From the IMG/VR virus record IMGVR_UViG_3300045391_006539: a stretch of DNA of 64,000 nt, one strand, 5' to 3'. This document shows, piece by piece, positions 477 to 51,351 of the stretch; position 1 is the first letter of the stretch, and each line of letters opens with the position of its first letter. Made by a program: the position numbers and the translations under genes. Source of the stretch: a virus (lineage: Duplodnaviria > Caudoviricetes). The notes beneath the pieces were generated by a model. That model worked only from the letters and a program-made list of their open reading frames with translations. It made no database searches and had not been told where the DNA came from.

Positions 477-983
477 ATGAAGAAGCTTTCTGGGCTGGTT
501 CTCGACTACTACGATGACGTGGACGGAGTGGTCTTTCAGAAGCTCTCGTCAGCGGCGCCAGTCCTCTCGGGTTTGGAGAAGACGGCAGCGAGTCTCGACC
601 CCGAAGCGCTCTCGCGTCTGCCGGATGACGTATTCGCTCTGCTCTTGCAGGATGGGGACACGAGTCTGCGCAAGTACGCGATGGCAGATGCAGGCAACAC
701 GGCGCTCTCCATCGCCTACTTCCTCGAGCTCGGTCATCGACTGCCCGTCGAGGCCCAGAAAGTGGCGGCTGCCAATCTCATTCAGGGTTGCGAGTGGTAT
801 GGCTTCCAACCACCACCCGAGCTCGAGAAGATAGCTCTCGGTCTGGGTACGGCCATTCACGGAGCACTCGTTTTGCCGGGTGCAATGAGTGAAGCGAAGA
901 AGAACTTGCAGGCGGTCAAGGGCGCTCCCGGTATCATGACACCCGAGCAAATCAAGGCTCGCCGCATGCAGATGGGAGTGTGA
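477..983 (+). CDS. Head-associated protein with KxA motifs and LPDDVFAL..RKY motif (DUF6582-like)
   Basis: ORF 453..983, ATG at 477 preferred. Motifs LEKTA, QKVA, LEKIA; LPDDVFAL/RKYAMAD resembles the DUF6582-type repeat. Confidence 0.6.
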   Translation: MKKLSGLVLDYYDDVDGVVFQKLSSAAPVLSGLEKTAASLDPEALSRLPDDVFALLLQDGDTSLRKYAMADAGNTALSIAYFLELGHRLPVEAQKVAAANLIQGCEWYGFQPPPELEKIALGLGTAIHGALVLPGAMSEAKKNLQAVKGAPGIMTPEQIKARRMQMGV

Positions 984-984
984 C

Positions 985-1827
985 GTGAACGAACTCGAGA
1001 ACTACCTGATGGACAAGACGGCAGAGGTGGCGGGTACACACCTGATGCCTTCCAGTGCTCCAACGTACAGTGACCAGAACCGTAGCCCCACCAAGACCAT
1101 CAAGAAGGCCTCCCTCGGACAGCGGGTGGACGTTACCGGTGCGGAAGCATCCGGCGGAGGGGCTACCAAGCAGGCTCATCATTACGCTCTGCCTGGTCTC
1201 TCTCGCTATCCGCTGGATAGTCAGCTGCATGTGAAGCAGGCGAGTGCCTACTTCGAAGAGAACCACAAATCGATGGCGCCCGTGCATCGGCACGAGTACT
1301 GCGTCAACCTGGTCAAGCGCGCGAGTGCGCTCGGCATGAACGTCTCCGACCTCGCTCGTAAGTATGGCTCGGAAAGCTACGCGAGCGATGCGGAAATCGA
1401 GATTGCTCTGCTCGGTCGAGCGAGCGTCATCAAAGAAGCGATGCACCGCAGGGCGCTCAATGCTCTCGATGACCACCGCGCGCTGATGAAGCCGTCCGAC
1501 TTTGTCGTGGCGCTCGAGCAGTTTGACAAGGTTGCTGGTATCAGCCACCTCTATGACAGCCACGTGCTCGACCCCTACCTCTCGACCTTCGGGACCAAGA
1601 TGGCGAGTGACAGCGCCATCCAGGTCGACAACGAGTACATCCCGAGGGCAGACCTCGAAGCCTTTGCGAGGACCGATGCCAGCCGCCTCACCGACTCTTT
1701 CGGTGAGGACTTCGTCAAAGAGTTTCGCAAGGACCCGGTTGGTATCTTGAACAGCCTGCCGAAGGACCAGAAGAAGATGGTCATTCGTTTGGCCTCGAGT
1801 ACTCTGACGGACCCGACCTCCACCTGA
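985..1827 (+). CDS. Head-associated protein with DUF6582-like domain and KxA motifs
   Basis: YALPGLSRYPLDSQLHVKQASAYF...LVKRASALGMNV matches the DUF6582 pattern from memory; DKTA, TKQA, TKMA. Confidence 0.6.
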   Translation: MNELENYLMDKTAEVAGTHLMPSSAPTYSDQNRSPTKTIKKASLGQRVDVTGAEASGGGATKQAHHYALPGLSRYPLDSQLHVKQASAYFEENHKSMAPVHRHEYCVNLVKRASALGMNVSDLARKYGSESYASDAEIEIALLGRASVIKEAMHRRALNALDDHRALMKPSDFVVALEQFDKVAGISHLYDSHVLDPYLSTFGTKMASDSAIQVDNEYIPRADLEAFARTDASRLTDSFGEDFVKEFRKDPVGILNSLPKDQKKMVIRLASSTLTDPTST

Positions 1828-1828
1828 G

Positions 1829-2662
1829 ATGGAGCGCGAGGATGCAGAGAGCCGCTTCCGCCGCGCGTTGGCGGAGGTGCAGGCGTATCCGAGCTTGGTC
1901 AAGGCTGGGGCTGATTACATCCGCGACCGATTGCGCGAGGGCTCCGTTCCAGGCAACGACGATGATGATGACATCATCGAGACGACCGAGAACGACGATG
2001 GAAAGAAGGAGGCGGAGGCGTTACCGCCCCCGCCCCACATCAACCTCTTCCAACATCCAGATACACACCCAGCGATACTCGACATCCTCTTGCTGCGCAA
2101 GTACGGACCCGAGTGGATGCTCTGGGAGCCCGAGACGCTCGCGCTACGCATCCCGCTCGATTTTCACACCGGTGAAGTGAGCGACCTCAACATGCACAAG
2201 ATTCAGGCCATGAAGACCCTGCACGTGGTCGACAGTCCTTGGACGGCGTGGGAGGTCTTCGTGTGGTGTGCCATGCCACTCAACGGTCTGTTCCCAGACT
2301 TCGAGGTGATGCAGGTACCGACGGTGGCGCAGGTACTGGTGGCCATCGACGTCTTCAACATCGTCCGGCAAGACGTGACTTGGAGCGACGAGCTCGCGAC
2401 TTACCTCGGCACGGTCTGGCGGCACGAAGGTCTATTCGTTCCCGTCTCTCCTGCGGACTTCATCACCATCGATACGAGCGGGACGAAGCTCGACCTCGAT
2501 AAGATTCGGAGCATGTGGCCCGAGGTGCGGCAGAGTCGGAAGGCGCCCTCGGACGAGAATGCCGAGAGCGAGCAGCTGCGGCGCATGCTCGAAGCCGATA
2601 CCTACCTGCGCGAGTCGCAGGAACTGTTCGAGCGCCAGATGAAGGGAGTGCTGGGTGCCTGA
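1829..2662 (+). CDS. Hypothetical phage protein; N-terminus carries a copy of the capsid protein's YIRDxLRE motif
   Basis: 277-aa ORF coupled to its neighbours; GADYIRDRLREGS versus capsid GGAYIRDKLREVS. Confidence 0.7.
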   Translation: MEREDAESRFRRALAEVQAYPSLVKAGADYIRDRLREGSVPGNDDDDDIIETTENDDGKKEAEALPPPPHINLFQHPDTHPAILDILLLRKYGPEWMLWEPETLALRIPLDFHTGEVSDLNMHKIQAMKTLHVVDSPWTAWEVFVWCAMPLNGLFPDFEVMQVPTVAQVLVAIDVFNIVRQDVTWSDELATYLGTVWRHEGLFVPVSPADFITIDTSGTKLDLDKIRSMWPEVRQSRKAPSDENAESEQLRRMLEADTYLRESQELFERQMKGVLGA

Positions 2663-3662
2663 GTGGGTCAAGGAAGCGCTCGCGCCAGCAACCCTCGCGG
2701 CGATGAGCACGGCAGTCAAAGGCTTGGGGGCCGGGGCTGGGGTGGGCGGCCTGCTCGGCGCTGGTGCCGGTGGAGCCCTCGGGGCAGTCCAAGGGTACCG
2801 GCACCAGCGCCAGCACGGAGCCGACGTCGGTCACGCCCTCGCCGGGGGTCTGAGGGGAGCGCTTCCTGGCATCGGCGCCGGCGCCCTGGCAGGTGCAGGG
2901 GTCGGTGGTATCGCTGGGGCTTTGAAGCCAATGCAAGCGCTGGCCATGGGTCAGAAGCCCGGTCTCTTGCAAAGCGCGAGCCACTTCGGCCAGCGTCAAG
3001 TCCATGCCCTCACGGGCGTTGGCGGGGCCCAGTACGCGCGCTCGGTGGGCGGAGGCGCTCACGATGCCGTCGAGCGCTACGAGGCAGCCAGGAAGGCCGT
3101 GGACGCCGTTCACGAGCTGCACCCAGACCGGGTCCCGGCCATGCGCGAGTTCACCAAGGCCCGACAGTGGCGCGACGCCGCGCTCGAGAGCGAGCGTCAG
3201 GGTATTACCAGCTTGCCGGGCTATGCCAAGGCGCTCTGGAAGAACCCGGCCGATGCCGTGGCGGCTGGAGTCAAGGACCAGTGGCACAGCATGGGTACTG
3301 GGGGACGGGCGCTCATGTATGGCCTGCCCGCCCTCAGCGTGGCGGGCGAGCTCGCCCACTCCGAGGACGAGTCGGGTAAGGGCAAGGGCCGCTTCCAGCG
3401 CGCGGGTGAGATGCTCGGCACGGCGACGGGCGCCCTCGCACCTTTGCCCATCGTCGGTGACCTCGCCTTTGGTGGGGCGCTCTCGGGCAGCTTGGGACAG
3501 GTCGGCAAGCGTCTCGACACCCGCTCCGCGCTCCGCAATTTGCAGAAGCGTCGGGGTGAGCAGGTGTCGCTCCCGCCCGAGCCACGCGGCGAGACGACAC
3601 CGAGCGAGTACATCGCGAGCGACAGGGCCTCAGGGGTCATCCCAGAAAGCGTCACGGCATGA
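2655..3662 (+). CDS. Glycine-zipper-rich putative internal virion/ejection protein
   Basis: VKEA followed by GLGAGAGVGGLLGAGAGGALGA and further GxxxG arrays; overlaps the portal start. Confidence 0.55.
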   Translation: MPEWVKEALAPATLAAMSTAVKGLGAGAGVGGLLGAGAGGALGAVQGYRHQRQHGADVGHALAGGLRGALPGIGAGALAGAGVGGIAGALKPMQALAMGQKPGLLQSASHFGQRQVHALTGVGGAQYARSVGGGAHDAVERYEAARKAVDAVHELHPDRVPAMREFTKARQWRDAALESERQGITSLPGYAKALWKNPADAVAAGVKDQWHSMGTGGRALMYGLPALSVAGELAHSEDESGKGKGRFQRAGEMLGTATGALAPLPIVGDLAFGGALSGSLGQVGKRLDTRSALRNLQKRRGEQVSLPPEPRGETTPSEYIASDRASGVIPESVTA

Positions 3663-28333: not shown

Positions 28334-28801
28334 ATGAGCAATCCCCTCGAAGACTACCTGGCGACCAAGCCCAAGACCAAGACGGCCTTCCTCGGCATGT
28401 CGGGCAGCAGTATCAAGAATGGCATCACCATGGGTGCCGAGGAAGCCATCGGCAAGGGCGTCGTGGGTCTAGCTGCGACAGGTATCGGTATCGCTGCACT
28501 CAAGACCATGCGCGCCCTGGGCAAGGCCCGGGACTTCAAGAACATGATGGCGCTCAACCCAGACCTGGTCGAGTACCACGACCAGAACCCGGCGCAGTTC
28601 AACGCCCACTACAACTCGCTCCGAGCCATGGCTCCAGCGTACGGGCAAGACCCCGTCATCTCCGGCACGCTCATGCGCCAGATGAACAACAGTCCCATGC
28701 ACGCCGGCGGCGTCCTGATGAGCGCACTCGAGGGCGCTCAGAAGTCCTCGCCGTCGTTCACTGCCAGCATGGACCCGCTCAAGGTGCAGGGTCGCTTCTG
28801 A
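28334..28801 (+). CDS. Small head-associated protein with KTA and a hydrophobic Gly-rich helix
   Basis: Internal ATG of track ORF 28049; MSNPLEDYLATKPKTKTA|FLG...GVVGLAATGIGIAAL. Confidence 0.65.
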   Translation: MSNPLEDYLATKPKTKTAFLGMSGSSIKNGITMGAEEAIGKGVVGLAATGIGIAALKTMRALGKARDFKNMMALNPDLVEYHDQNPAQFNAHYNSLRAMAPAYGQDPVISGTLMRQMNNSPMHAGGVLMSALEGAQKSSPSFTASMDPLKVQGRF

Positions 28802-30519: not shown

Positions 30520-31326
30520 ATGACCATGAATCAAGATTTGCGCCAGATGTTCGCGGGCAGCGACGAAGCCACCGTGAAGCAGGCCGAGGCCGAGATGTTC
30601 GCGAAGCTCGCTGCGGCGGAAGGCGTCAACCTCGCAGACTTCACCGATGAGCAGGTGCAGCAGCTCTGGGACCATACCTTCGGCAAGCATGCCGAGGATG
30701 GCGAAGAGGCCAAGAAGGACGACGAGGAGAAGGACGACGACGAGAAGAAGGAAGCGGCCGCGGCCGAGCACCAGCAGAAGCTCGCGTTCGCCAACGAAGT
30801 CGCCAAGGCCGAGCACCTCGGTCAGGTGATGGCCGAATCTTACGTGCAGCACCTCAACAAGCTGGGCCACGACCTGTCGAAGGAAGCCACCAAGGCGCTG
30901 CCGGGTCCGAGCATGCGTGGTGCCTTCGGTCGGGCACTGACGAGCGTCCAGCAGGCGGCTCGCAAGGGCAAGGGCGCCGTCGAGCGCGGCGCGCGCAAGG
31001 CGGGTGATTTTGCCAAGGAACACAAGGGCAAGTTCATCGCTGGTGGCGCGGGTGCTGCTGCGGGTGCCGGTGGGGGCTATGTGGCTGGCAAGAAGAAAGA
31101 GAGCTCGGCGCTCTCCAACATCGACCAGCTGGCGCTCGAGCACGCGGTCAAGCTCGCGAACGACGCAGGTCTCGACCCCGAGGTGGCGGCGACGCGTGTG
31201 ACGAGCGTCGCGAACCTGGGTCTGGACGAGTCCGACAAGGTCGCCTCCACGCTGCAGGAGCAGGTGCACGTCCGCGCGCTCGAGTATCTCGAGGCGGCGG
31301 GTTACCCCGTCACCTGGCCCGAGTGA
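30520..31326 (+). CDS. Scaffold-like head protein with KxA motifs and an internal Gly-rich cationic peptide
   Basis: SD GAGGAG; acidic helices; VKQA, AKLA, GKHA, KKEA, QKLA, SKEA, VKLA, DKVA. Confidence 0.65.
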   Translation: MTMNQDLRQMFAGSDEATVKQAEAEMFAKLAAAEGVNLADFTDEQVQQLWDHTFGKHAEDGEEAKKDDEEKDDDEKKEAAAAEHQQKLAFANEVAKAEHLGQVMAESYVQHLNKLGHDLSKEATKALPGPSMRGAFGRALTSVQQAARKGKGAVERGARKAGDFAKEHKGKFIAGGAGAAAGAGGGYVAGKKKESSALSNIDQLALEHAVKLANDAGLDPEVAATRVTSVANLGLDESDKVASTLQEQVHVRALEYLEAAGYPVTWPE

Positions 31327-31360: not shown

Positions 31361-32779
31361 GTGGCAGCGACGTTCAAGATGGCGGCGTCTATGGGTTCTG
31401 GTCTACCAGACCCCCATAAGGACGTCGCTGCTTCCAACCCCATCCCGACGATGGCTGTCGAGAACAAGCCAGCGCCGGGGCAGACGGGTCCCAAGGGTCT
31501 AGCCCCGAGGACCACGTACTCGCGAGTGAACACGGGGCAACCTCCCGTCATGGACGCTGGAGCATCCGCCCAGAAGAGTGGCCCCAACATGGGGATGAGT
31601 TTTCTGCCTGCTAAAGTGGCAGCGGATAGAGGTTTTATGGCTACGTCATTTCAAGAGCGCCCCACGCTGCAGTCGATGGTGAAGGCAGCCATGGAGGGGG
31701 CGACGCATCGTCTGTCTGTCAACATCGAGGCAGGGCGTCAGGAGCAGACTCGCAGCGGTGTGAAAACCGCGAATGCGAAGGCGTCTTCGTCCTCCCCCGG
31801 TCACGTATCTACCGAGCTTTGCCAGAAGCTCGCAGGTGCACTCGGTTTCATCAGCCAGCAAATCGTCAAGGAAGCGGAGGGTCCCGGTGAAGGACCGGGC
31901 GCATTGACGGTGATGCAGGCGACGAGCAACGAGAAGCCCCTCGAGCCGGGCGAGAGTGGCCAGGCGACGGGCAAGAACCAGCCGCCGCGCACGCCCGAGA
32001 CTCAGAGCGAGCAGGTGCAGAGCGGCAACGCTGGTACGGGTCTCGAAACCAATGACGACATGATGCACGGCGAGCAGCCGGTGGAACCCATCAAGAACGC
32101 CTCGGCCTTGGTGCAGGCCAACCTGGCCAAGGTGTCCTCGGCACTCGGCGCGGCCATGGGTGTGCGCAACGCCGTGCGCAATACGGCCGTCGATGCCGTC
32201 TCCAAGGGCAAGGCCCTTGGTCAGAAGGGTGTCGACTGGGCGAAGGCCAACCCCAAGAAGGCCATCGGCATCGGCGCAGGCGCCGCGGCCGTGGGCGGTG
32301 GTGCTGCTCTCGCCTCGCGCAAGAAGGAGGGCTCCGCCCCCATCGCGCTCATCCGGAAGCTGGCGGAAGATGCCATCAATCCGGCGCACATCGACTCACC
32401 AGCGAGCGTCAACCCCGCCGAGCCCCCGCCTGGTGCGAGCGCGAGCGAAGAGGGCGTGCCGAGCGAGCCCGGTGACGTGACCAGCCAGAAGCGGATGATT
32501 GCCTCCAACCAGGCAGCCATCGACTACACGAAGCGCGAGGCCAAGGCAGACCCCAAGAAGGACGTCGCCCAGGTCGTGACCGAGCCGCCGCTGTCGAGCA
32601 CGACGGACAAGGTGCTCGAGCAGGCCTTCGATGCCACGGGTCAGGCCGGCGTGAAGATTTCGTCGGCGGGTGGTCTGCGCAAGACCGCCATGCAGGTGAG
32701 CGCCCAGCGCGTCATCCTCGACCGCTTGCTCAAGCAGGCGAGCGCCGACGTGGAGAAGTCCCAGGGCGCGAGCGCCTGA
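31361..32779 (+). CDS. Low-complexity scaffold-like head protein with KxA motifs (possible internal start 31637)
   Basis: 472 aa; VKTA, QKLA, VKEA, IKNA, RKLA, RKTA, LKQA. TGC-TAAAGT and GAGG precede ATG 31637. Confidence 0.65.
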   Translation: MAATFKMAASMGSGLPDPHKDVAASNPIPTMAVENKPAPGQTGPKGLAPRTTYSRVNTGQPPVMDAGASAQKSGPNMGMSFLPAKVAADRGFMATSFQERPTLQSMVKAAMEGATHRLSVNIEAGRQEQTRSGVKTANAKASSSSPGHVSTELCQKLAGALGFISQQIVKEAEGPGEGPGALTVMQATSNEKPLEPGESGQATGKNQPPRTPETQSEQVQSGNAGTGLETNDDMMHGEQPVEPIKNASALVQANLAKVSSALGAAMGVRNAVRNTAVDAVSKGKALGQKGVDWAKANPKKAIGIGAGAAAVGGGAALASRKKEGSAPIALIRKLAEDAINPAHIDSPASVNPAEPPPGASASEEGVPSEPGDVTSQKRMIASNQAAIDYTKREAKADPKKDVAQVVTEPPLSSTTDKVLEQAFDATGQAGVKISSAGGLRKTAMQVSAQRVILDRLLKQASADVEKSQGASA

Positions 32780-32793: not shown

Positions 32794-33150
32794 ATGGACA
32801 AGCAGAGTGCAGCCAAGGTCGCGCAGGTGCTCCAAGAGGCGGGGGAGACCATCCTCAGCCTGAGTGCCGAGCGTGACAAACTGGCTTCCGAGAACGCGGC
32901 CTACAAGCGCCGTGAGGAAGCCACCAAAGTCGCGAGTGTGCTCCACGACAAGGGCATCGACCGTGACATGGAGTTTCCCGAGCTGGTATCGAAGCTCGAG
33001 AAGGAAGCAGAGGCAGGCCGTCTCCCAGAGATTGCCCGCGCTGCAGAGTGGATTGGTCCACAGATGAGCTTCGGCTCCACCAATCACGACGAGAACGTTG
33101 GTTCGGGTGGCGACATGCTGACCAACTACCTCGTTGGTTCTGTCGGCTAG
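32794..33150 (+). CDS. Small coiled-coil scaffold-like protein
   Basis: SD AAGGAGG; DKLA, TKVA, EKEA. Confidence 0.7.
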   Translation: MDKQSAAKVAQVLQEAGETILSLSAERDKLASENAAYKRREEATKVASVLHDKGIDRDMEFPELVSKLEKEAEAGRLPEIARAAEWIGPQMSFGSTNHDENVGSGGDMLTNYLVGSVG

Positions 33151-33691: not shown

Positions 33692-33718
33692 GCTCAGAAA
33701 GGAAAGAGGACACAGACC

Positions 33719-34834
33719 ATGGTTTCAGGTCGCATGCTCAACGAGTCCTTTGCTCAGAAGCTGAACACGGCTGATGGCAAAGAGAAAGTCGCCGAATTCG
33801 GCGGCGCCTACATCCGGGACAAGCTGCGCGAGGTTTCCTTCGTGCGCAAAATCATCCCCCCGGAGAACGTGACGCGCGCGGATTGCCAGCGCTCCGTCAA
33901 CCACGACACGCTCGTGAAGATTGTCGATATCGAGCCCAAGAGCCGCGCGATGACGGTGACCTTCCGTGGCGCTCCGTCGGCTCGCTTCATCCGCGGCGAC
34001 CGCGCCGAGGTGGCCTTCTTCACCATCTCCAGCGAGATGTTCCAGAAGACCGAGCAGGAGCTCCTCGCCTACGAGATGCCCATCACGAAAATCATCGAGG
34101 AGAACTCGGTGAAGGACATCCAGGAAATCGAGGACCGCGAGTTCGTCATCCACATCGAGGCGGCAGTCCAGGCGCTGCAGACCGAGGCCAACAGCGGCAC
34201 CCCGGCGGCGCTGGCAGCGAGCACCATCGGCACGACGGTGGAGTTCTCCATCATCAAGGGCGAGCTCGCCCGCGCCGATTCGGCAGACACGGCGACGGTG
34301 CAGCCCATCCAGCGGCCCGACATCGTCAACCTGTTCAAGCTGCTCGACACCAACCGTCTGCGTTGTGAGCGCCTGCTCATGACGGAGCCGGACTGGGACG
34401 ACCTGCTGCAGTGGACGGTCGAGGACTTCGGCGACAAGATTCAGTCCGAGACGGCCATCGATGGCTACAAGTACAACACGGTGCTGGGGCGGCCTTACAT
34501 CCGCACCATCAAGACGGACATCCTGCGTCCGGGCAACGTGTATGCCTTCACGAAGCCGGAGTTTTTCGGGAAGTTCTACGTCCTGAACAACACCAAGTTC
34601 TACATCGACAAAGTCGCGAACACCATCACGTTTCAGGCGTGGGAAGACATCGCGATGTCGGTCATCAACGTGGCGTCCGTGCGCAAGCTGGAGCTCTACT
34701 CCGGCAATGCCAACCCGAACGCGGGTAACCAGAGCCTCATCGCCAACTTCGTGCCGGTGGACGAAGACCAGCTCGGCGCAGTGAACAACCGCGTGAGCGC
34801 CGGCCTCAAGTTCCCGTCGGTGACCCAGTACTGA
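33719..34834 (+). CDS. Major capsid protein (HK97-fold, inferred)
   Basis: 371 aa with very biased codon usage; follows protease/scaffold/decoration genes and precedes a terminator; IRDKLREVSFVRKIIPP N-terminus; helix EIEDREF. Confidence 0.75.
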   Translation: MVSGRMLNESFAQKLNTADGKEKVAEFGGAYIRDKLREVSFVRKIIPPENVTRADCQRSVNHDTLVKIVDIEPKSRAMTVTFRGAPSARFIRGDRAEVAFFTISSEMFQKTEQELLAYEMPITKIIEENSVKDIQEIEDREFVIHIEAAVQALQTEANSGTPAALAASTIGTTVEFSIIKGELARADSADTATVQPIQRPDIVNLFKLLDTNRLRCERLLMTEPDWDDLLQWTVEDFGDKIQSETAIDGYKYNTVLGRPYIRTIKTDILRPGNVYAFTKPEFFGKFYVLNNTKFYIDKVANTITFQAWEDIAMSVINVASVRKLELYSGNANPNAGNQSLIANFVPVDEDQLGAVNNRVSAGLKFPSVTQY

Positions 34835-37119: not shown

Positions 37120-37581
37120 ATGGCACTCGCATTTCGAAAGTTCTCTCGGCTCGAGCACGCGACGTCGTTTCTCCAGGGTCACCTCGTCGGAAGCGTGAGC
37201 TTGCTGCGCAATGGCAACTCGCTCTATTTGCATGGCAAGACCCTCATCTTCACGACGCCGAGCGCCACGGTGACGTTCGATGCGACTCCCGATGGCACGC
37301 AGATTCCTCTCACGCTCGCGCAGGTGAAGTCCCAAATCGAGGCGGGCGCGTCGGGCGTGACGTGCCACTTTAGCGAAGGCCGGCTCGACCTGTTCATGGC
37401 GACGCCCGGGTCTATCGCGCTCGACAAGGACGGCACGGCCAATGCCCAGCTCGGCTTCAGTACGACGGCGGACAGCTCGGCGGCGGTCTATGCCGCGCCG
37501 GGTGGGTCTGCGCCAGCGCTCGTCCAGATTGTCCCGGACACGGGCAGCAACTCCTTCGTGGTGGTGACCGATGATGCATGA
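37120..37581 (+). CDS. Virion structural protein with a sheath-insertion-like motif
   Basis: TLAQVKSQIEA...GTANAQLGF resembles repeats in the sheath N-terminal region. Confidence 0.5.
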   Translation: MALAFRKFSRLEHATSFLQGHLVGSVSLLRNGNSLYLHGKTLIFTTPSATVTFDATPDGTQIPLTLAQVKSQIEAGASGVTCHFSEGRLDLFMATPGSIALDKDGTANAQLGFSTTADSSAAVYAAPGGSAPALVQIVPDTGSNSFVVVTDDA

Positions 37582-40318
37582 GTTCGAACGCGCCCTTTCC
37601 CGCAGTATTCCTCTCGGGGTCTCCGCTGGCTTCTTCCACCGCATCAAGACGGCGGGCTGGGGGGAACCACCGGATGAGACGGGCGCCCTCGAAGGCGCCT
37701 TTGCCGCGCCCATCGAGCAGGTCATCGCCAAGCTCACCGAAGTGGCGGCGGCGAAGTTCCAGCTGATGGTGGCCTACCATGTCTACGCCGAGAGCATGCG
37801 GGGCGTGGCGCAGCATGCCTGCGCCGAGGTCTTCCACGAGCACGCCGAGCAGGAGCGCGCGGCCGGTGAGGCTTACCTCAAACGCACGGCCGTGCTCGGC
37901 AGTGGCCCCGTCCACCTACCCGAGGTGACGACGCCGCCGGCGAGTGCAGACCCGGCGGGCATTCTCATGCTGCTCGCCCGCGCCGAGCAAGAGGCGATTG
38001 CCGCCCAGCGCGAGCTCAAGGCGCTCGTCGGGGAGGACAACCCCCTCTCGTTCCAAATCGAGCAATTCATGGTCGAGGACCAGCACCACCTCGACGAGTG
38101 CTGGCAGATGCTGCCGCAGGACGCCGTTCGTACGCCAGTCATCGACACGGCCCCTGCCGGTATGGTAGAGGCACCAAACGTCGAGGAGGAGACTCCGGCG
38201 CCTGTCGAGGCTCCCGCAGTGCCGAAGTCTCCGTCCAAGACTGCCGGCGCCCTCGCGAACATCGAGAAGACCGTCTTTGACGGCAAGCGTCTCGGAGCCA
38301 AGCCCTTCCAGTCCTTCAATGCTTTCGGCACGCCGAGCAAAGAGGTGCTGATGGCGCTACCGGCAGGTGGCGCAGCCGTGGGCGCGGGTCTAGGCTCGCT
38401 CAGGTCTCTCGTACAGAGCCCCGAAGACAAGGAGCAAGTCCTCGAAACGGGCGGCCCCGTCAGTCAGTTCAAGACTCGGCACCCCGTCATCGCGGGTGCT
38501 CTCGGCGGCGCAGCCCTCGGCGGCAGTGCTGCGCTCGCAGCCAAGGGCCTCATGCGTGGCCGCTCGCCACTCGACCCTACGGGTGGCGTGAAGCCGGCGA
38601 GCGTGCCGCATCTCGTGGGTGGTGCGGGTCTATTCGCAGCGCCATCGGCGGTGGGCATCGTCGACGAGGCACTCGCCCGGAAGCGGGACGAGGCGCTCGC
38701 CAAGAGCGCGAGCATTGCCGAGCTCGGGCGCAAGATGCGTCGTGGTCTGGGGCGCTACGGCGAGCTCGTCTCGGGGAGCAACGCACGGCGCATGGGTCGC
38801 GCGGCACAAAATGCGATGCTCGACGCGCAGCGGGTGGCTGGAAGGGGCGTCGACCAGGCAGCGCGCAGGGGCAAGCACCACGTGCGAACCCACGGCGAGG
38901 AAATCGTTGGTGAGTTCAAGCGTCGCATGGGCAAGGCGACCGAGCTCGGGGACGCGGCGGTCAAGGAGTACGACCTCTCGCGCAAGGTTCAAATCGGTAC
39001 GGGTGCCGGCGCCGTGGGCGCGCTCGGTACGGCCGCGGCCGCCAAGAACCGCTCGGACATGAAGAAAATCGAGCGCACGAATCAGCGGCTCAAGACCGCT
39101 TTCGTCGTCGCGCTCGAGAAGCTCGCCCTCGCTCCGAGCGAGCCTGGCTTTGGCAGCGACCCGTCGGCGGCGCCCATGCCCGGCAACGAGCCCTCGTTCG
39201 TGCCCCAGCCCAGCATGGAAGCCCCCGGTCCCCAGCCGCCCATGGCGCAGCCGCCGGGCACGGGGCAGTACGCTCCGGTCAACTATCTCGAGGCGGAGCT
39301 CACGGGGCGTCGCGTGCAGGAAGCCAACGAGGCCAACTTCTACCGCGCCAAGGCGGACGAGGCGAGCACGCAGGTCGCCAGTATGGGCGAGCAGGTGCAG
39401 TCCATTCAGGGTCAGCTCGACCAACTCTCGGCGCAGGCTGCCGAGAGCCAGTCGCAAATCATGGCCGCCAACGAGGAGGCCATGCGCGCGAACGACCAGA
39501 TGCTCAACCAGGCGACCCTCGCTGCGCGCATGCGCATGGGCATGCAACAGCTACGCGCCCAGATGATGGAAGTCGCGAGCCAAGACCCCGAGCAGCTGGC
39601 AGCGGCTGCCGGTGGCCCGACGCCGATGGACGTCGGACAACAAGCACAGATGGCGGGCGCTCCGGCGGCGGCCCCTGCGGGTTCTCCTGAGGGAGCGTCA
39701 GACCCGACGGGTGGCGCCGGCGGAGCGCCACCGGGTGCTCCGGCAGAGCCCGGTGCAGACCCGGGAACGCCAGCAGCCTCACCCGACCCGGGTGCACCCC
39801 CAGGCTCGCCGTCGGCGGGTGCGGGTGGCCCTCCAGGCGGTGGTGGCGGTGAGGGTGGCGAATCGCAGAAGAGCGACGGCGGTGAGTCGACCGACAAGAA
39901 GAAAGACACTGCCGAGACCACCGTGTCCATCAAGAAGGGCTCGGCGAAGACGGCCGGTCTCATGAACATGCCGAACATGGAGCAGGAGCTCCGGCACATG
40001 GCACCCTACGTTGCTGCTGGCGTGGGCCTCGGTGGGCTCGCGGGCGCGTACGAGGGCTATCACGAGGGGGACAAGGTTCCGAACCTGCAGAAGCGCGTGA
40101 GTGAGCTGCAGGGGACGTTCGGCAAGTCGCTCGAGCTCGCACAGACCCAGGTCGAGCTGGCGAAGGCGGAAGAGGCACGCGCCAACCCGGGCAAGAGCGC
40201 CCTGCGTGGGGGTCTTCGTGGTGCGGCCATCGGCATGACGGCGGGTGCCATCACTCCGCAGGCCATCGGCGGCGTGCGTGAGCTCGGCAAACACATCAAG
40301 CACCTGAGGGCAAACTAA
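37571..40318 (+). CDS. KxA-punctuated polyprotein: ferritin-like domain, glycine zippers, coiled coil, Pro/Gly linker
   Basis: Four-helix ferritin pattern (AYHVYA, FHEHAEQE, KRTAVLGS, AEQEAI, EDQHHLD) between IKTA and SKTA; later AKSA, LKTA, EKLA, AKTA. Confidence 0.7.
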   Translation: MMHEFERALSRSIPLGVSAGFFHRIKTAGWGEPPDETGALEGAFAAPIEQVIAKLTEVAAAKFQLMVAYHVYAESMRGVAQHACAEVFHEHAEQERAAGEAYLKRTAVLGSGPVHLPEVTTPPASADPAGILMLLARAEQEAIAAQRELKALVGEDNPLSFQIEQFMVEDQHHLDECWQMLPQDAVRTPVIDTAPAGMVEAPNVEEETPAPVEAPAVPKSPSKTAGALANIEKTVFDGKRLGAKPFQSFNAFGTPSKEVLMALPAGGAAVGAGLGSLRSLVQSPEDKEQVLETGGPVSQFKTRHPVIAGALGGAALGGSAALAAKGLMRGRSPLDPTGGVKPASVPHLVGGAGLFAAPSAVGIVDEALARKRDEALAKSASIAELGRKMRRGLGRYGELVSGSNARRMGRAAQNAMLDAQRVAGRGVDQAARRGKHHVRTHGEEIVGEFKRRMGKATELGDAAVKEYDLSRKVQIGTGAGAVGALGTAAAAKNRSDMKKIERTNQRLKTAFVVALEKLALAPSEPGFGSDPSAAPMPGNEPSFVPQPSMEAPGPQPPMAQPPGTGQYAPVNYLEAELTGRRVQEANEANFYRAKADEASTQVASMGEQVQSIQGQLDQLSAQAAESQSQIMAANEEAMRANDQMLNQATLAARMRMGMQQLRAQMMEVASQDPEQLAAAAGGPTPMDVGQQAQMAGAPAAAPAGSPEGASDPTGGAGGAPPGAPAEPGADPGTPAASPDPGAPPGSPSAGAGGPPGGGGGEGGESQKSDGGESTDKKKDTAETTVSIKKGSAKTAGLMNMPNMEQELRHMAPYVAAGVGLGGLAGAYEGYHEGDKVPNLQKRVSELQGTFGKSLELAQTQVELAKAEEARANPGKSALRGGLRGAAIGMTAGAITPQAIGGVRELGKHIKHLRAN

Positions 40319-41097
40319 TGCTGGACGCATTTCTGGAAGTCGCGTGTGGCCGTGAGAAGATGGCCGCGCAGAAGACCCGCAACATGGAGCTGCTCGGCAA
40401 GCTCCCGACCGAGACCCTGCAGAAGATTGCCTGCGGCGGACTCGGCGGGTACGGTGGAGAAGGCTGGCTCGAGAAGTTCCAGGGCAGTCCCTTGCTCGGA
40501 CAGGCCATCGCCATCGAGAAGGAAGAACTCGCCATCCAGATGGAGGAAAGTCAGCGGCGTGCTCGCGAGCGCGAGGTGCGAGAGAGCATGGGCTCGTGGG
40601 AAGACACGGCGGCCAAGCGCGACGAGCTCGCCGTCAAGCGACGTCTTTTGGAACTCGAGCTGGTGGGCGGACCCTCCGCTGTCAGCCCCGCGCCGGCTGT
40701 CGAGGAAGACCCGGGGCTCGAGCCCGAGCTCGCTGCTCCCGCCGAAGACCCGGCGGTCGATGTTGCCCCGAGTGAGGGGGCAGCAGCTCCGCCGAAGGGT
40801 CTACGCCCTCACTCCACGGAGGTGGGGAACGGTGGCGCAGACCCGGGTGCGGAGGTAGACACACCCGAGACCGACCCGAGTGAGGCGGCAGACCCACCGA
40901 AGCCCAAGCCCAAAGCCGAGGCCAAGGAGAAGACTGTCGAGAAGACCACCGAGAAGCCGGTGCCGGAGAAGATTGACGTCAAGACCTCTGAGAAGGAGGC
41001 GGCTGCGCGCTTCAAGTTCGCTGCGGCTCGCTTGCGCTTCTCTCAGGCCGTGAAGGAGGCGCAGCCCGCGAACGGGCAGCGTCCCTTTCACCGCTGA
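40318..41097 (+). CDS. Head-associated KxA protein; probable +1 frameshift extension
   Basis: MLDAFLEVACGREKMA, QKIA, EKEA, FKFA, VKEA; ends CCC TTT CAC CGC TGA. Confidence 0.7.
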   Translation: MLDAFLEVACGREKMAAQKTRNMELLGKLPTETLQKIACGGLGGYGGEGWLEKFQGSPLLGQAIAIEKEELAIQMEESQRRAREREVRESMGSWEDTAAKRDELAVKRRLLELELVGGPSAVSPAPAVEEDPGLEPELAAPAEDPAVDVAPSEGAAAPPKGLRPHSTEVGNGGADPGAEVDTPETDPSEAADPPKPKPKAEAKEKTVEKTTEKPVPEKIDVKTSEKEAAARFKFAAARLRFSQAVKEAQPANGQRPFHR

Positions 41098-41848
41098 GAA
41101 GACCGCCGGCGTCGCCGCTCCCGCCACGGGTCTCCGTCGGGGGCTGCAGCTCATCTCGGGCAGCCGTCTCGGGCAGCTCGAGCAGGCAGCGGCGCAGCGG
41201 GGCGCGGTGGCCGCGCGGCAGTCGGGTCTCGCCAACCACCACTACCGGGGCGCCTTCCACGCCGCCGACGAGGCGGCGAGCAGCCGCCTCTACCAGCGCT
41301 CGCTCACGAGTGCTCGGGGCTCGGCTCGGACCCATGGTGCCGCCGAGCGCGCCCAGCGCGCGCTCGGGGCGGAGCGGGCCGCAGTGCAGGGCGCTCGGGG
41401 TACGGCGCTTCGGGCTGCTGGCGCCGGGGCGCTCGGGGTGGGTGGAGGTGCGATGGGCATGAACGCCGCCGAGGGTGGCCCCAAGCTCGCGAGCCCCCTG
41501 ACGGCCACCGTGGCCTCGGGCAAGCGCCTGGTCTCGGGGGCGGTCGACGCCCTCGGGAGCACCATGGCAGCGGCTCCCAAGGCCATCTCGGGCGTCGTGC
41601 CCAAGGCGGTCGCCAGCGAGGCAGCGACCGCCGCGGGTAGCCGGCAGGCGGCGCGCGCCGTGGCGAACGAGCGTCGGGTGGCGCAGGCTGCTCGAGCAGC
41701 GGCACCCCCCGTGCCACCACCGGCCGCACCGGTGGCAGCCCCGGCCCTCGACCCGCGCGCTCGCGCACGGCGCATCATCGGCGGCGTGGGTCTCGGGGGT
41801 CTCGGTCTCGGCGCGGTCGCCGCCCACGGTCAACCCGAGGCACGCTGA
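41090..41848 (+). CDS. Ala/Arg/Gly-rich extension in the +1 frame (frameshift product candidate)
   Basis: Frame open from 41054; encodes AEKTA|GVAAPATGLRRGLQLISGSRL upstream of the first GTG (41207). Confidence 0.55.
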   Translation, partial: TAEKTAGVAAPATGLRRGLQLISGSRLGQLEQAAAQRGAVAARQSGLANHHYRGAFHAADEAASSRLYQRSLTSARGSARTHGAAERAQRALGAERAAVQGARGTALRAAGAGALGVGGGAMGMNAAEGGPKLASPLTATVASGKRLVSGAVDALGSTMAAAPKAISGVVPKAVASEAATAAGSRQAARAVANERRVAQAARAAAPPVPPPAAPVAAPALDPRARARRIIGGVGLGGLGLGAVAAHGQPEAR

Positions 41849-41851
41849 GAC

Positions 41852-42748
41852 GTGGCCATCGGCATCTCCGTCGACGACGTGGTCGTGCGTTCCCTGGACG
41901 TCGACCACTTCGAAGTCTCCTGGAAGCTCAAGCCGACGAGTCAGGACATTCTGGACTACACGTTCCAGGTCCTGCGCTCGGAGGCGGCGATGGGTCCCTT
42001 CGAAGCGGTCTCGGCGGAGATGGACGACCGGTTCTTCTTTGTCGACAACCGCATCGCCAGCGGCAACGACTTCCGGCAGTGGTTCTACACCATCCGGGTC
42101 AAGGACAAGCAGTCGGGCGACACCAAGGACTTCGGTCCCGTCTCGCCCGGTGCTGACGCAGACCTCATCGCCGCGGAGCTGCGCAAACACATCAACCTGC
42201 TGATGCAGGAGTTCATCGGGCGCAGGTGCTGGGTCTTCCCCGTACGCACCTTCGGTCAACGCTGCTCGTGCTGGAACCCGACGTTGCAGAAGCGCACGCG
42301 GAGCCACTGCCTCACTTGCTACGATACGGGCTTCGTGCGCGGCTATATGACGCCCATCGAAGTCTGGGCCAGCATCGACCCGGATACGAAGAACGAGCAG
42401 AACATGACGCTGGGTCCGACCCAGCAGAGCAACACCTCGGCGAAGCTCGGCTTCTTCCCACCCGTCAAACCGCGCGACGTCATCGTCGAGGCGGAGAACA
42501 TTCGCTGGCGCATCGTGACCGTGGGTGGGACCGAGCAGGTGCGTGCCCAAGTGCACCAGGAAATCACCCTGCACAAGATTCCCTCGACGGACATCGAGTA
42601 TCGACTACCACTCGACCCGGGCGGCGCGCTGCAGAACTTGTGGCTCTCGCCACCTCGGAACTTCAGCAACCCCCACAACTATGAGGGCTTCACGTCCGAG
42701 GACTACATCAACGCCCAGCGTCTATACACCTCGCGGTTCCCCCAGTGA
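41852..42748 (+). CDS. Putative neck/head-closure protein with FN3-like N-terminus and Zn motif
   Basis: VSWK..YTFQVLRS..FVD..YTIRV (FN3-like); CSCW...CLTCYDTGFVRGY. Confidence 0.55.
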   Translation: MAIGISVDDVVVRSLDVDHFEVSWKLKPTSQDILDYTFQVLRSEAAMGPFEAVSAEMDDRFFFVDNRIASGNDFRQWFYTIRVKDKQSGDTKDFGPVSPGADADLIAAELRKHINLLMQEFIGRRCWVFPVRTFGQRCSCWNPTLQKRTRSHCLTCYDTGFVRGYMTPIEVWASIDPDTKNEQNMTLGPTQQSNTSAKLGFFPPVKPRDVIVEAENIRWRIVTVGGTEQVRAQVHQEITLHKIPSTDIEYRLPLDPGGALQNLWLSPPRNFSNPHNYEGFTSEDYINAQRLYTSRFPQ

Positions 42749-43134
42749 TGGACAAGTTTTCGCACTGCCTCGACGTTCTCTCCAAACTGGCGGAGCTCGC
42801 GCCCGACCCCATCAAACCGTCGCCGCCAGACCCGCAGATGCCCCCGGGTCGAGCGCTCAGCCTCGCCAAGACGCTCGGCGTCGGGACACTCGGCCTCGGT
42901 GCCGGTTATCTGGCGGGTGCAGGTCTCGGCAAGGGCATCGAGTACGTGATGGGGCAGCAAGGTGAGAATCCGGCCAGTGCTGCACGCGTCATCGCGCCCG
43001 TGGCGGGCGCCGCCGCCGGTATCATCTATCCTCTCTGGAAGGAACGGGAGCAGCAGGTGCTCCGTCAGGCGGTAGAAAAACGACATGCCTACGAGAGTGC
43101 ACGAAACCAAAACAGGGGCAGGCTTCCCGGGTAG
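42745..43134 (+). CDS. Small glycine-zipper KxA protein
   Basis: SKLA, then GVGTLGLGAGYLAGAGLG and a second hydrophobic helix. Confidence 0.6.
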   Translation: MMDKFSHCLDVLSKLAELAPDPIKPSPPDPQMPPGRALSLAKTLGVGTLGLGAGYLAGAGLGKGIEYVMGQQGENPASAARVIAPVAGAAAGIIYPLWKEREQQVLRQAVEKRHAYESARNQNRGRLPG

Positions 43135-47140: not shown

Positions 47141-48355
47141 ATGCCCCAGAACACGGCACCCATCGCCCTCATCCGCAAGCTCGCGGCTGAGGGCGCGCCG
47201 GCGGAAGTCCCCGAGGGCTATGAGAAGCAGCTCGGCAAGGACTACCAGCGCACGCATCAGAAGCACGTTCAACGTACGGCTCTGCCCACGACCCTCGGTG
47301 CCCTCGGGGGCGCCATCGGTGGCGGTATCCTGAGCGAGCGGCTCACGCGCACGAAGCTGCCTGCGCTCGACTTCATGGGGCAAACGCTCTTACCCGAGTC
47401 CCACATCGCTGGTGACCCGTTCATCGGCGCGCTCGGTGGTGGCGTCATGGGCGGCGCGCTCGGTCATGCTGCAGCCCACCTCTCACCGGAGACCCGGAAA
47501 CTTCGCGACAAGATGCAGTCCATCCAGACCGAGCGTGACGCCCTTGGCGCACGTACGCCCGGGTCTACGACGGTCCTGACCGACGAGAACCTCGACCGGG
47601 ACCGGTACGGGGAGCTCCGTGCCGATGCAGCGCAGGCTCGCCTGAACCTCCGTGAGGCGGGCAAGCCCACACGCGTGGGCGCAGGGCTCGGCGCGCTCGC
47701 TGGGGCAGGTGCCGGTCTGCTCTCGGGTTATCGTGCCAGTGGTGGCAGAGCGTCAGAGATGGCGGCTCACGGACTCCTCGGAACGAGCTTGGGAATCGGC
47801 GCCGGCGCCATCGGCGGCTCGTTGGCCTCTGGACGCTCTTTTCCTCTGGCAATCAGGCGGCAAATCCAGACCGAGGAAGCCCGGCAGCGCTTCCGTCGGG
47901 GCGCGCAGACGCTCGACGCAGAGAAGGAAGCGGCCGCGCGCGCCAACTTCGACAGTCTCTTCGTGGGCCCAGACCCCACACTCGAGGAGACCATCGACGA
48001 GCTCAAGTTCGCGGCCATCGCAGACCCCGAGCTCTTGAAGGTGGCCTACGTGCTCGCCGAAGACGACTTGCTCACGACCTACGAGGCGCTCGGTGGCATC
48101 TACAAGGTCGCCTTTGGTCAGCAGATGTTCGACACGAAGCAGCTCGCGGGTAGTCCTGCCCTCGCCGGTGGCATGAACCAGCGCGCCTCGACCGCCACTC
48201 CCACGCTCGCCCAGCCGGGTGCTCAAGCGCCGCAGTCGCCAGCGGCCCCCAAGGTGCCCACCAGTCAGCCGTCACAGGGTTCGAGCGCTCCTTCTGCTGC
48301 TTCGGCGACGTCCGCACCGTCGACCCCCGGTGCCACGACAATCACCGTGGGTTGA
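47141..48355 (+). CDS. Glycine-zipper KxA protein inserted between sheath and tube genes
   Basis: Internal ATG of track ORF 46553; APIALIRKLA, four GxxxG segments, EKEA, LKFA, LKVA, YKVA. Confidence 0.65.
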   Translation: MPQNTAPIALIRKLAAEGAPAEVPEGYEKQLGKDYQRTHQKHVQRTALPTTLGALGGAIGGGILSERLTRTKLPALDFMGQTLLPESHIAGDPFIGALGGGVMGGALGHAAAHLSPETRKLRDKMQSIQTERDALGARTPGSTTVLTDENLDRDRYGELRADAAQARLNLREAGKPTRVGAGLGALAGAGAGLLSGYRASGGRASEMAAHGLLGTSLGIGAGAIGGSLASGRSFPLAIRRQIQTEEARQRFRRGAQTLDAEKEAAARANFDSLFVGPDPTLEETIDELKFAAIADPELLKVAYVLAEDDLLTTYEALGGIYKVAFGQQMFDTKQLAGSPALAGGMNQRASTATPTLAQPGAQAPQSPAAPKVPTSQPSQGSSAPSAASATSAPSTPGATTITVG

Positions 48356-49528: not shown

Positions 49529-49900
49529 ATGTTCCTCGCACTCCTTCAGCCGGTGGCGCAAGTCCCGGCTGAAGTCGCGGCCAAGGCGGGGACTACACTG
49601 ATAGAGAGCGGCATACTCGGTACGCTGCTCGTCGTCAGCGTACTCGGTAACGCGGCTCTCATCTGGCTCGCTCTCCGCACCATGAACAAGCGGGTGGAGG
49701 ACGGCAAAGCCCTGCATGCCCTGAGCGAGAAGATGGTAACTACCTTCGCCAGCATGGAGACGGCAGTCGAAGACCTGAACGACGCAGACAAGGCTCAGAC
49801 TATGGCTCTTCAATCCATGAAGAGCACGCTCGACACACTGCTCATGAGCATGGCTGTTCGTGGCGTACCGAACAACCACCCGCCGGGCAAGGTGCGGTGA
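49529..49900 (+). CDS. Membrane protein, holin-like candidate
   Basis: SGILGTLLVVSVLGNAALIWLAL transmembrane helix plus coiled coil. Confidence 0.45.
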   Translation: MFLALLQPVAQVPAEVAAKAGTTLIESGILGTLLVVSVLGNAALIWLALRTMNKRVEDGKALHALSEKMVTTFASMETAVEDLNDADKAQTMALQSMKSTLDTLLMSMAVRGVPNNHPPGKVR

Positions 49901-50097
49901 TGCTCCAGGCTCTGCTACGGTATCTGGGACTCGATGCCGAGAGCAAACGGCAACGAGCGGAGACGAAAGAACGCCTCGACCGCGCCAATTCACAGCTCGA
50001 CTTGCTTCAGAAGAAGCTCGAAGAGACCAGCCAGAACTCTTTGAAGGAGCAGAAGGCGATTCACAAGACCTTGAGCCAAGGTGGCAGCCGTGGATGA
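49897..50097 (+). CDS. Small coiled-coil protein
   Basis: 66 aa overlapping both neighbours. Confidence 0.55.
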   Translation: MMLQALLRYLGLDAESKRQRAETKERLDRANSQLDLLQKKLEETSQNSLKEQKAIHKTLSQGGSRG

Positions 50098-50572
50098 AGA
50101 CACCAGACCCGTAGACCGTGACATCTTGCGTCAGGCCATTGCTGCTTTGCGCGAGGTCAACGCCAATCTCGAGAGCGTGATGCTCCGTAACGACAAGGTC
50201 ATCCGCCGGCAGAACTGGCTCACGGGGCTGTTCCTACTGTCGCTCGGCATGCTCGGTGGGCAGCTCTTCCTGGGCCTTTCTCAGCAGGCGCTGCAGGAGT
50301 CGGCCAAGACCCAGCTCGCCGCACAGGAGCAAGGGCGCATCGAGATGCAGCGCGCGCTCGAGGCGGCCAAGATTCAGGTGCGCGAGCTCGAGACGTCGAT
50401 GAAGCAGCAGCTCCAGGCCGTGCCCACGGTGACGAGTGACAAGGCGGGGCGGCTCAGTCTCGAGGTACCACTCGACGACGCCACCAAACAGGCGGTGAGT
50501 GCGACTCCCACACTCCCTCCCGAGAAGGTGGTGATACCCTTGAAGCCGTCACAGGCGAAGCTCTCGAACTGA
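50081..50572 (+). CDS. Single-TM coiled-coil protein (spanin-like candidate)
   Basis: WLTGLFLLSLGMLGGQLFLGL followed by a heptad-rich region. Confidence 0.45.
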   Translation: MAAVDEDTRPVDRDILRQAIAALREVNANLESVMLRNDKVIRRQNWLTGLFLLSLGMLGGQLFLGLSQQALQESAKTQLAAQEQGRIEMQRALEAAKIQVRELETSMKQQLQAVPTVTSDKAGRLSLEVPLDDATKQAVSATPTLPPEKVVIPLKPSQAKLSN

Positions 50573-50577
50573 GGTCT

Positions 50578-51351
50578 ATGGACAAGCAGGCAAACCCGGT
50601 CGTCGCCGCCAAGCTCATCGCCGCCATGCTCGGCTCGGGCTTGATGATGGCCGACAGTGCCCATGTCCAGGAACTCCAGGAAGAAGCGGCGGTTCTCAAC
50701 GAGATGAGCCGCATGTACGAGGCGAGGAAGATGCAGCAGACCATCGACAGCCTGAGCACCCAGAAGTTCGCTTCGGCCGAGTGGCATGCCCTGCGCGCGG
50801 TGAAGGTGGCGGCCGCCGTCACGGCCGCCGGCGGGGACTTCGACAAGCTCGCGGCCCTGCTCGAGGCGGAGGGCATGGACAAGGAGGCGCTCGGCGCGCT
50901 CATCGGAGGTCTCGCCCGGCTCGGTGGGGCCGCTCTCAAAGGCCTCGGCGGGGGCGCCAAGGCGCTCGGCGCCGCCAAGCTCCCCTCACTCGGGGGCTCC
51001 GGCGTGGGCGCGTTCCAGAAGGCCTGGCAGGGCGCCGCGCCGGCAGCGCAGGCTACCCAGGGGTACCTGCAGCGCGCTGGCGGCTGGCTCCAGGGACACG
51101 GCGCCTCGCTCGCCGCCAAAGGTCAGGCCAGTGTTGCGGCCGCCGCGCCGGCAGCCGCTGCGAGCAAGCCGCTGCTCGGCATGGGAACCAAGGCCAAGCT
51201 CGTCGGCGCGGGTGCGCTCGCTGGTGCGGGCTACCTCGGATACAAGGGTCTGCAGGCGGGACGAGACTACATGCTGGCGCCGCCGCGGCACAGCATTTAC
51301 GGCACACCCGTCGCGAACAACATCAATCAATACGGAGTGCCGCAGTACTAG
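50578..51351 (+). CDS. KxA protein with C-terminal Gly/Ala-rich amphipathic peptide
   Basis: DKQA, QKFA, VKVA, DKLA, MDKEA|LGALIGGLARLGGAALKGLGGG. Confidence 0.7.
   Translation: MDKQANPVVAAKLIAAMLGSGLMMADSAHVQELQEEAAVLNEMSRMYEARKMQQTIDSLSTQKFASAEWHALRAVKVAAAVTAAGGDFDKLAALLEAEGMDKEALGALIGGLARLGGAALKGLGGGAKALGAAKLPSLGGSGVGAFQKAWQGAAPAAQATQGYLQRAGGWLQGHGASLAAKGQASVAAAAPAAAASKPLLGMGTKAKLVGAGALAGAGYLGYKGLQAGRDYMLAPPRHSIYGTPVANNINQYGVPQY

Follow-up and report, generated by a model that had tools for sequence, protein, structure and literature searches.

Why should one short pattern, a lysine followed two positions later by an alanine (K-x-A), recur in the head proteins of a phage? The question is raised by a 64,000-nucleotide stretch of DNA, here called the window, from IMG/VR virus record IMGVR_UViG_3300045391_006539 (Duplodnaviria; Caudoviricetes). 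An earlier note on this DNA had listed 15 open reading frames (ORFs) in which the motif recurs, and had proposed that the product of one of them, ORF 28805, cuts after it. Our analysis indicated that φ-x-K-x-A followed by Ser or Ala is probably what the phage's own capsid-maturation serine protease, encoded by ORF 28805, recognises; this enzyme would act in the style of those of T4 and phiKZ. That K-x-A is a conserved functional signal tied to this protease is supported indirectly, by several lines of evidence; we infer cleavage itself, ORF 28805 as the enzyme, the cut after Ala and the fate of the fragments.

Excess and conservation of K-x-A

Sixty-four genes were called over the window by ORF selection guided by the GC content of third codon positions (GC3), and the K-x-A motifs of each protein were counted against 2000 composition-preserving shuffles. 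The motif exceeded the shuffled expectation (p<=0.015) in eight of the 15 listed ORFs, namely, ORFs 477 (5 versus 1.5 expected), 985 (8 versus 2.0), 19311 (15 versus 4.7), 27091 (12 versus 3.3), 28805 (8 versus 3.1), 30520 (9 versus 4.4), 31361 (12 versus 5.5), and 32794 (4 versus 1.0), which pooled contain 73 motifs versus 25.5 expected. For the other seven, the recurrence that the earlier note described is not an excess of counts: ORF 47141 was borderline (5 versus 2.3, p=0.06), and the shuffle test found no enrichment in ORFs 2655, 28334, 37571, 40318, 42745, and 50578. The motif is inconspicuous elsewhere, as had been stated, since the pooled genes outside the list, including those of the sheath, the terminase, and the RNA polymerase, contain 48 motifs versus 61 expected, and it is under-represented in the RNA polymerase ORF 10498 (9 versus 16).

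Within the eight enriched proteins, permuted controls stayed at expectation (AxK, 25 versus 25.5; KA, 22 versus 25.5; KxxA, 28 versus 25.4), and so did RxA (14 versus 17.3). The same was true of KxS (13 versus 12.6) and KxG (12 versus 15.1), and the suggestion that these are variants of the motif has to be dropped. A Glu-containing control, ExA, was also at expectation (29 versus 30.8). The enriched motif is distinct, as had been proposed, from those of T4 and phiKZ, which end in Glu. KxxS was in excess (36 versus 12.6). Ser directly follows Ala at 32% of the K-x-A sites versus 8% in other genes (Fisher p=0.003), and Leu or Phe is favoured two positions N-terminal to the motif Lys. When every residue pair at gaps of 0 to 2 was scanned in the contiguous, unselected block 27091-34834, K-x-A ranked first of all gapped pairs (z 6.2).

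The motif positions are conserved as well. Across nine ortholog groups, the motif Lys was conserved at 0.68 versus 0.51 for other Lys residues (Mann-Whitney p=7e-4) and the motif Ala at 0.65 versus 0.44 for other Ala residues (p=6e-6), so the site conservation that the earlier note had named as a check is present above background. Taken one by one, many sites occur in every ortholog. Single sites were also conserved in homologs for four of the five non-enriched proteins that were checked, those of ORFs 28334, 37571, and 50578 and the major capsid protein.

The signal extends to related phages. A tblastn search with the ORF 28805 protein recovered only Vibrio phages D69, D181, and D148 (30% identity), Salmonella phage Arash gp222 (31%), and Bacillus phage G gp19 (24%). 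The gene order 27091, 28334, 28805, 30520 (scaffold-like), and then the capsid gene 33719 is the same in six syntenic metagenomic contigs (L004-L009), Arash, D69, and phage G; the three named phages have the protease homolog just 5′ of the capsid gene, and in phage G its gene comes after the annotated portal gene. K-x-A was the top pair in the head modules of Arash (46 versus 21, z 5.4) and D69 (51 versus 22, z 6.0) and was weaker in that of phage G (z 2.8). Of the two contigs to which the pair scan was applied, K-x-A ranked first in L004 (z 6.0) and second in L005, and in both the excess was carried by the matching ortholog groups. As a positive control, the scan of the T4 gp20-24 module recovered IxE (z 4.1) and LxE (z 2.8), with 16 versus 5.7 in gp22; the I/L-x-E motif of T4 has been established experimentally (PMC9026906).

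Homologs of the K-x-A head proteins, including the protease gp222, were detected in Arash virion preparations. Table 2 of the Arash study (PMC10585845) gives gp220 a "coverage" of 95.8% of 307 amino acids (aa) with 6 unique peptides, whereas the protein has 33 tryptic pieces; judged from such peptide counts and the tryptic map, that column is not literal sequence coverage, and we used it neither way.

The candidate protease of ORF 28805 and its predicted substrates

ORF 28805 (28805..30493, +) encodes a candidate prohead maturation protease of 562 aa. Its AlphaFold2 (AF2) model has a mean predicted local distance difference test (pLDDT) score of 77.7 and consists of a disordered leader (residues 1-32), a catalytic domain (~33-280), a disordered linker (280-332), and a helical C-terminal domain (333-540). 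In VIA-align, the model matched T4 gp21 (5jbl_B; Z 8.8, root mean square deviation 2.8, 131 of 164 residues), the varicella-zoster virus (VZV) protease (1vzv; Z 8.3), and other assemblins (Z 5-8), with herpesvirus proteases making up about 40 of the top 50 rows. The top Foldseek matches were nearly all herpesvirus proteases plus T4 gp21, at weak E-values (0.13-1). By this model, the protein has the fold of T4 gp21 and the herpesvirus assemblins. Fold and head-module placement fit the assemblin-like capsid maturation proteases (the superfamily of herpesvirus assemblin, T4 gp21, and HK97 gp4), and no sequence match to ORF 28805 was found in Pfam, PHROG, NCBIfam, or PDB that would place it in a curated family. 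The family itself is large, with 2325 cluster representatives at E<1e-3.

The candidate catalytic residues, His118 (codon 29156..29158, +) and Ser174 in DVSMG (29324..29326, +), are invariant in an alignment of 35 homologs at 33-73% identity; the modelled prohead-protease fold and the invariant Ser speak for the earlier assignment of a protease with its Ser in DVSMG. K-x-A sites in the disordered segments that bracket the catalytic domain are conserved to the same degree as these putative catalytic residues. At K30-T-A32 (28892..28900, +), the predicted N-terminal autoprocessing site in a segment of pLDDT<50, K30 is invariant and A32 is present in at least 90% of the 35 homologs. On the other side, K307-T-A309 and K322-L-A324 (29723..29776, +) are predicted C-terminal autoprocessing sites in the linker; K307 and A309 are each present in at least 90% of the homologs although the surrounding linker is gappy, variable, and disordered, and K-x-A is retained in 31 of 35 (K307) and 28 of 35 (K322). 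By analogy with gp21, gp175, and assemblin, sites that flank the catalytic domain in this way are the pattern expected of autoprocessing. A further K-L-A/S-S site at K511, ~50 aa from the C-terminus, is found in 16 of the 35 homologs.

Residues 184-235 (29354-29509, +) form a Cys/His insertion (C184, C187, C233, and H235; CxxC...CxH). The 23 closer homologs keep all four residues without exception, and the homologs of Arash, D69, and phage G share the pattern. The insertion resembles a zinc site, for which T4 gp21 (212 aa) would be too short. Many homologs are 900-1700 aa long and match the query in two to four stretches, with breaks near residues 66, 107-116, 174-182, and 232 that adjoin the most conserved motifs, and the long homologs listed carry intein or homing-endonuclease Pfam domains. 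Read from the match breaks within 174-182, many homologs appear to have an intein beside Ser174, a position that fits a functionally critical site; inteins next to a putative active site are unusual in a phage protease.

In the mechanism that we propose, the protease would be built into the prohead with scaffold-like and internal proteins, as in T4 and phiKZ. It would free its catalytic domain by cuts at A32|S33 and A309|S310, and perhaps A324|R325, in the disordered linkers, remove a propeptide of ~25 residues from the major capsid protein, chop the scaffold-like proteins of ORFs 30520, 27091, 31361, and 32794 and much of that of ORF 19311 to short peptides, and trim short N-terminal leaders off the proteins of ORFs 28334, 37571, 50578, and probably others. 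The trimmed leaders may serve as capsid-targeting tags. The cut would fall after Ala, to judge from the P3-x-P1| motifs of characterised relatives and from the preference for Ser at the next position (PMC10052503).

The HK97-fold major capsid protein (33719..34834, +; phrog_2522, NF042927) carries K23-V-A25 (nucleotides [nt] 33785-33793, +) at the end of a predicted 25-residue N-terminal propeptide. This is the single EKVA site that had been reported near the capsid N-terminus; it is present in 5/5 orthologs, and for Arash and D69 the alignment shows a K-E-A shifted downstream by two residues. Among the proteins with many sites, the acidic scaffold-like protein of ORF 30520 (30520..31326, +) contains 9 K-x-A, five of them in 5-6 of 6 orthologs, and one conserved site lies ~30 aa N-terminal to a highly conserved C-terminal segment. 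The head-module proteins of ORF 27091 (27091..28332, +; 413 aa) and ORF 31361 (31361..32779, +) carry 12 sites each, of which eight and six, respectively, are found in 5-6 of 6 orthologs; the homologs of ORF 27091 in Arash (gp220) and D69 are K-x-A-rich too. A small head-module protein (ORF 32794; 32794..33150, +) has four sites, with K45 and K70 conserved.

ORF 19311 (19311..21662, +) encodes a 783-aa protein with 15 sites clustered at residues 14-366 and 588-699, seven of them in 4-5 of 5 orthologs; cutting at the sites would leave fragments of ~148, 222, and 82 aa. Its pairwise match to Arash gp218 is weak (E=0.008), and the two genes correspond in position. The Arash virion proteome places Gp218 among the abundant proteins (1149 spectra) and has Gp204 as the portal. 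As a candidate portal, ORF 19311 was rejected, given its Arash counterpart, gp218, and the assignment of the Arash portal to Gp204. No usable match for ORF 19311 was found in the ESM Atlas.

The adjacent ORFs 477-983 and 985-1827 (477..1827, +) are both enriched. In 20 homologs of ORF 985, K11, K41, K111, A113, A86, and A207 are invariant; few columns of the alignment do not vary, and they include motif residues. Its AF2 model has disordered residues 1-60 with three sites and a folded helical domain with five; a Foldseek search with the model gave no meaningful match.

Several proteins carry the motif at the end of an N-terminal leader or at a domain border. The small Gly/Ala-rich protein of ORF 28334 (28334..28801, +) has a leader that runs to K16-T-A18 (nt 28379-28387), with the pattern NP(l)[DE][DE]YL...K-x-A, KTKTA and then FLG, in 5/5 orthologs. 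ORF 37571 (37571..40318, +), which has 8 sites versus 7.3 expected, encodes a 915-aa protein with a ferritin-like domain at residues 52-179 (Pfam Ferritin, E=1.6e-9), preceded by a leader to K26-T-A28 (nt 37646-37654) and followed by K223-T-A. The leader, ..FF..IK[TH]A, is present in both orthologs with a matching leader and following segment, those of L005 and L008. Pfam marks the ferritin-like domain in the L008 ortholog too; a coiled coil and Gly/Ala-rich segments are further parts of this long head-module protein, and its ferritin-like domain is reminiscent of the ferritin-like cargo of HK97-fold encapsulins. In the Gly/Ala-rich protein of ORF 50578 (50578..51351, +), D101-K102-E103-A104 (nt 50881-50889, +) stands directly before LGALIGGLAR, a Gly-zipper-like segment. 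Seven homologs all keep K63, K90, A92, D101, K102, and E103, and DKEA is found in 6/6 homologs, one as K-E-S. The boundary examples quoted in the earlier note are in the sequence, KTKTA|FLG and MDKEA|LGAL among them.

The remaining candidate substrates are the Gly/Ala-rich protein of ORF 2655 (2655..3662, +), with a single N-terminal K6-E-A8 (1 versus 2.3 expected); ORFs 40318-41097 and 42745-43134 (40318..43134, +), with K-x-A close to the N-terminus, the former having an L004 ortholog that begins MLDNFLKVA; and the Gly/Ala-rich protein of ORF 47141 (47141..48355, +), with an N-terminal PIALIRKLA. This 9-mer occurs in two ORFs on the + strand, at the ORF 47141 N-terminus (47159-47185) and inside ORF 31361 (32339-32365), where the site is K-x-A in 6/6 orthologs; from its repetition, it may be an element for docking or cleavage that the two proteins have in common. 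The description of the set as some 14 head proteins is only tentative for ORFs 477, 985, 2655, 42745, 47141, and 50578, all of which map outside the head module.

The idea of a polyprotein whose pieces are cargo retained in the capsid found no support. Modules do lie between sites in one case, the ferritin-like domain of ORF 37571 being bracketed by them, whereas the ORF 27091 protein, with 12 sites in 413 aa, and that of ORF 30520 would be reduced to peptides of ~10-60 residues, which resembles scaffold degradation as for T4 gp22. Most such processed fragments leave the head in T4 (PMC9026906).

Alternative explanations and known systems

Processing by the ORF 28805 protease after Ala was weighed against four other explanations. 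If K-x-A were the recognition site of an enzyme that cuts after Lys (K|x-A), x-A-S would lie on the prime side. Lys is the most conserved motif position, but the fold-sharing herpesvirus assemblins cut between Ala and Ser. Relatives among phages likewise cut after the third residue of a P3-x-P1 motif (T4, L/I-x-E|; phiKZ, S/A/G-x-E|; SPN3US, A-x-E|; PMC9026906, PMC10052503), and Ser is enriched right after Ala here, as SPN3US favours Ser at P1′; a cut after Lys is thus unlikely. We consider it still less probable that the motif stays uncut and acts as a linear element for docking to the capsid interior or the scaffold, for DNA contact, or for lysine modification or crosslinking. Several conserved sites do lie inside folded helices or cores; however, a docking or modification motif is not expected in at least 10 copies per protein, nor at disordered domain-border linkers, the capsid N-terminus, and leader ends, places that known protease codes match, and the T4 protease code behaved alike in the control scan.

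A protease of the host, or a second one of the phage, might cut these sites in place of the ORF 28805 enzyme, whose link to the substrates comes from co-occurrence and domain-flanking sites. This seems very improbable to us, since the enrichment accompanies a 28805 homolog in every related phage examined, across very different hosts and base compositions (Salmonella, the Vibrio set, Bacillus/Lysinibacillus, and the high-GC uncultured clade), and it is in 28805 itself, on either side of the catalytic domain, that the best-conserved K-x-A sites are found. Least credible of all is an excess without function, one that would simply follow from composition or helical periodicity where scaffold-like proteins are rich in Lys and Ala. 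The enriched proteins are indeed Ala-rich and largely helical, but the counts exceed composition-preserving shuffles while AxK, KA, KxxA, and RxA do not, the motif positions are conserved above background, and the motif recurs in the head modules of D69 and phage G, which are unrelated at the DNA level (no megablast match).

Other observations weigh against processing by ORF 28805. Conserved K-x-A motifs also occur in the core of the protease (K124 and K271) and of the capsid protein (K298), and the helical domain of ORF 985, folded with confidence in the model, holds five of its eight sites, so not every site can be cut and the signal could be partly structural. Count enrichment is missing from seven of the 15 listed ORFs. 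Cleavage in the 28805 family is so far a prediction, and the Arash virion data, which come without a peptide list, neither support nor refute processing. The fold match is moderate (Z under 9), the family profile showed no sequence similarity to T4 gp21 (hhalign probability 0.1), and the equivalence of His118 and Ser174 to the template catalytic residues is a putative one, read from the alignment.

Herpesvirus assemblin (pUL26 type) releases itself at Ala|Ser R and M sites. The ORF 28805 protein is like it in fold (1vzv, Z 8.3), in the succession of protease domain, linker, and C-terminal domain, in the small residue followed by Ser at the presumed cut, and in the extra K-L-A/S-S site near the C-terminus (K511); assemblins are not known for a Lys at P3. 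No significant similarity to ORF 30520 was found in the last 230 aa of 28805, so a nested-gene arrangement of the pUL26 type is absent.

The likeness to T4 gp21 comprises the protease fold (5jbl, Z 8.8), a three-residue P3-x-P1 motif, many copies in scaffold and core proteins, sites that flank the protease, a capsid N-terminal site, and short N-terminal leaders that end in the motif. Gp21 cuts gp22, gp67, gp68, gp23, gp24, IPI-III, and Alt at L/I-x-E|, and the T4 internal proteins carry a capsid targeting sequence (CTS) (PMC9026906). The systems differ in the motif, K-x-A here versus L/I-x-E, with cleavage here predicted only, and in the protease, which in 28805 has 562 aa, a Cys/His insertion, and a large helical C-terminal domain. 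With phiKZ gp175, 201phi2-1 gp268, and SPN3US gp245 the present system shares a large phage in which many head proteins are processed, or here predicted to be, at a short motif. The SPN3US enzyme prefers Ser at P1′, and the phiKZ-group proteases autoprocess C-terminally (PMC10052503, PMC9026906). All of that group have Glu at P1, in contrast to the presumed P1 Ala and P3 Lys here, and sequence-level homology of its proteases to 28805 was not detected. As processing of the T4/phiKZ type requires, K-x-A is over-represented in scaffold and core proteins and the protease, and proteins of the tail and of replication show no such excess; the enriched motif does not end in Glu.

The closest known proteins are phage G gp19 (24% identity) and Arash gp222 (31%), direct homologs whose genes lie in a matching neighbourhood. 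In a preprint (bioRxiv 10.1101/2024.12.16.628780), gp19 is called a head maturation protease; the phage G and Arash papers describe neither a cleavage motif nor processing. No description of K-x-A as a phage head-protease cleavage code was found in the searchable literature. To our knowledge, all phage codes characterised so far (T4, phiKZ, and SPN3US) cut after Glu. A 2026 review of jumbo phages cites S/A/G-x-E as the sole motif.

If the proposed processing is true, it would represent a prohead-protease specificity with P3 Lys and P1 Ala, unlike known phage codes, and would apply to a family of >2,000 sequence clusters that includes the cultivable phages G, Arash, and the Vibrio D69 group, in which the idea is directly testable. 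For dozens of head proteins without annotation, the mature form would become predictable from sequence, a candidate capsid-targeting tag for packaging foreign proteins would be at hand, as done with the T4 CTS, and the link between phage and herpesvirus maturation proteases would be tighter. A doubtful extension, which we offer tentatively, is that a very large and mostly uncultured clade of 100- to 500-kb phages, to which this lineage belongs together with phage G, Arash, and the Vibrio D69 group, might use a herpesvirus-like Ala|Ser protease gated by a P3 Lys, with short N-terminal φ-x-K-x-A leaders as a general load-then-release capsid tag for diverse cargo unmasked by cleavage, a ferritin-like domain and Gly-zipper segments of membrane type being examples.

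The window and its other genes

The window has a GC content of ~62%, and megablast with an 8-kb query found no near match among 50,697 phage records. A protein identical to the ORF 28805 product is encoded on a 200,805-bp contig, from which we take the window to belong to a large myovirus-like phage found in metagenomes only. The source phage is of ~200 kb and represents a separate high-GC lineage sampled from metagenomes alone. A scan of viral contigs with the sheath protein and ORF 985 did not find relatives.

Among the other genes, ORF 3659 (3659-5686, +) has a weak portal match (phrog_16240, E=3e-6), and a protein with a tail-sheath-like C-terminal region is encoded at 44058-47132. PHROGs gave no matches for ORFs 477, 985, 1829, 2655, 17004, 21797, 33170, 34897, 47141, and 50578. 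ORF 10498 (10498-16971, +) encodes a fused beta/beta′ RNA polymerase as a single chain of 2157 aa; RNA polymerase beta and beta′ rank among the most abundant proteins detected in Arash virions (PMC10585845). The large terminase (23387-26266, +) has 959 aa, with a weak LAGLIDADG-domain match at residues 647-687 (E=0.0055, under the Pfam cut-off). Its orthologs in L006-L008 have 600-623 aa, and given this difference in length the terminase of the window likely contains an intein.

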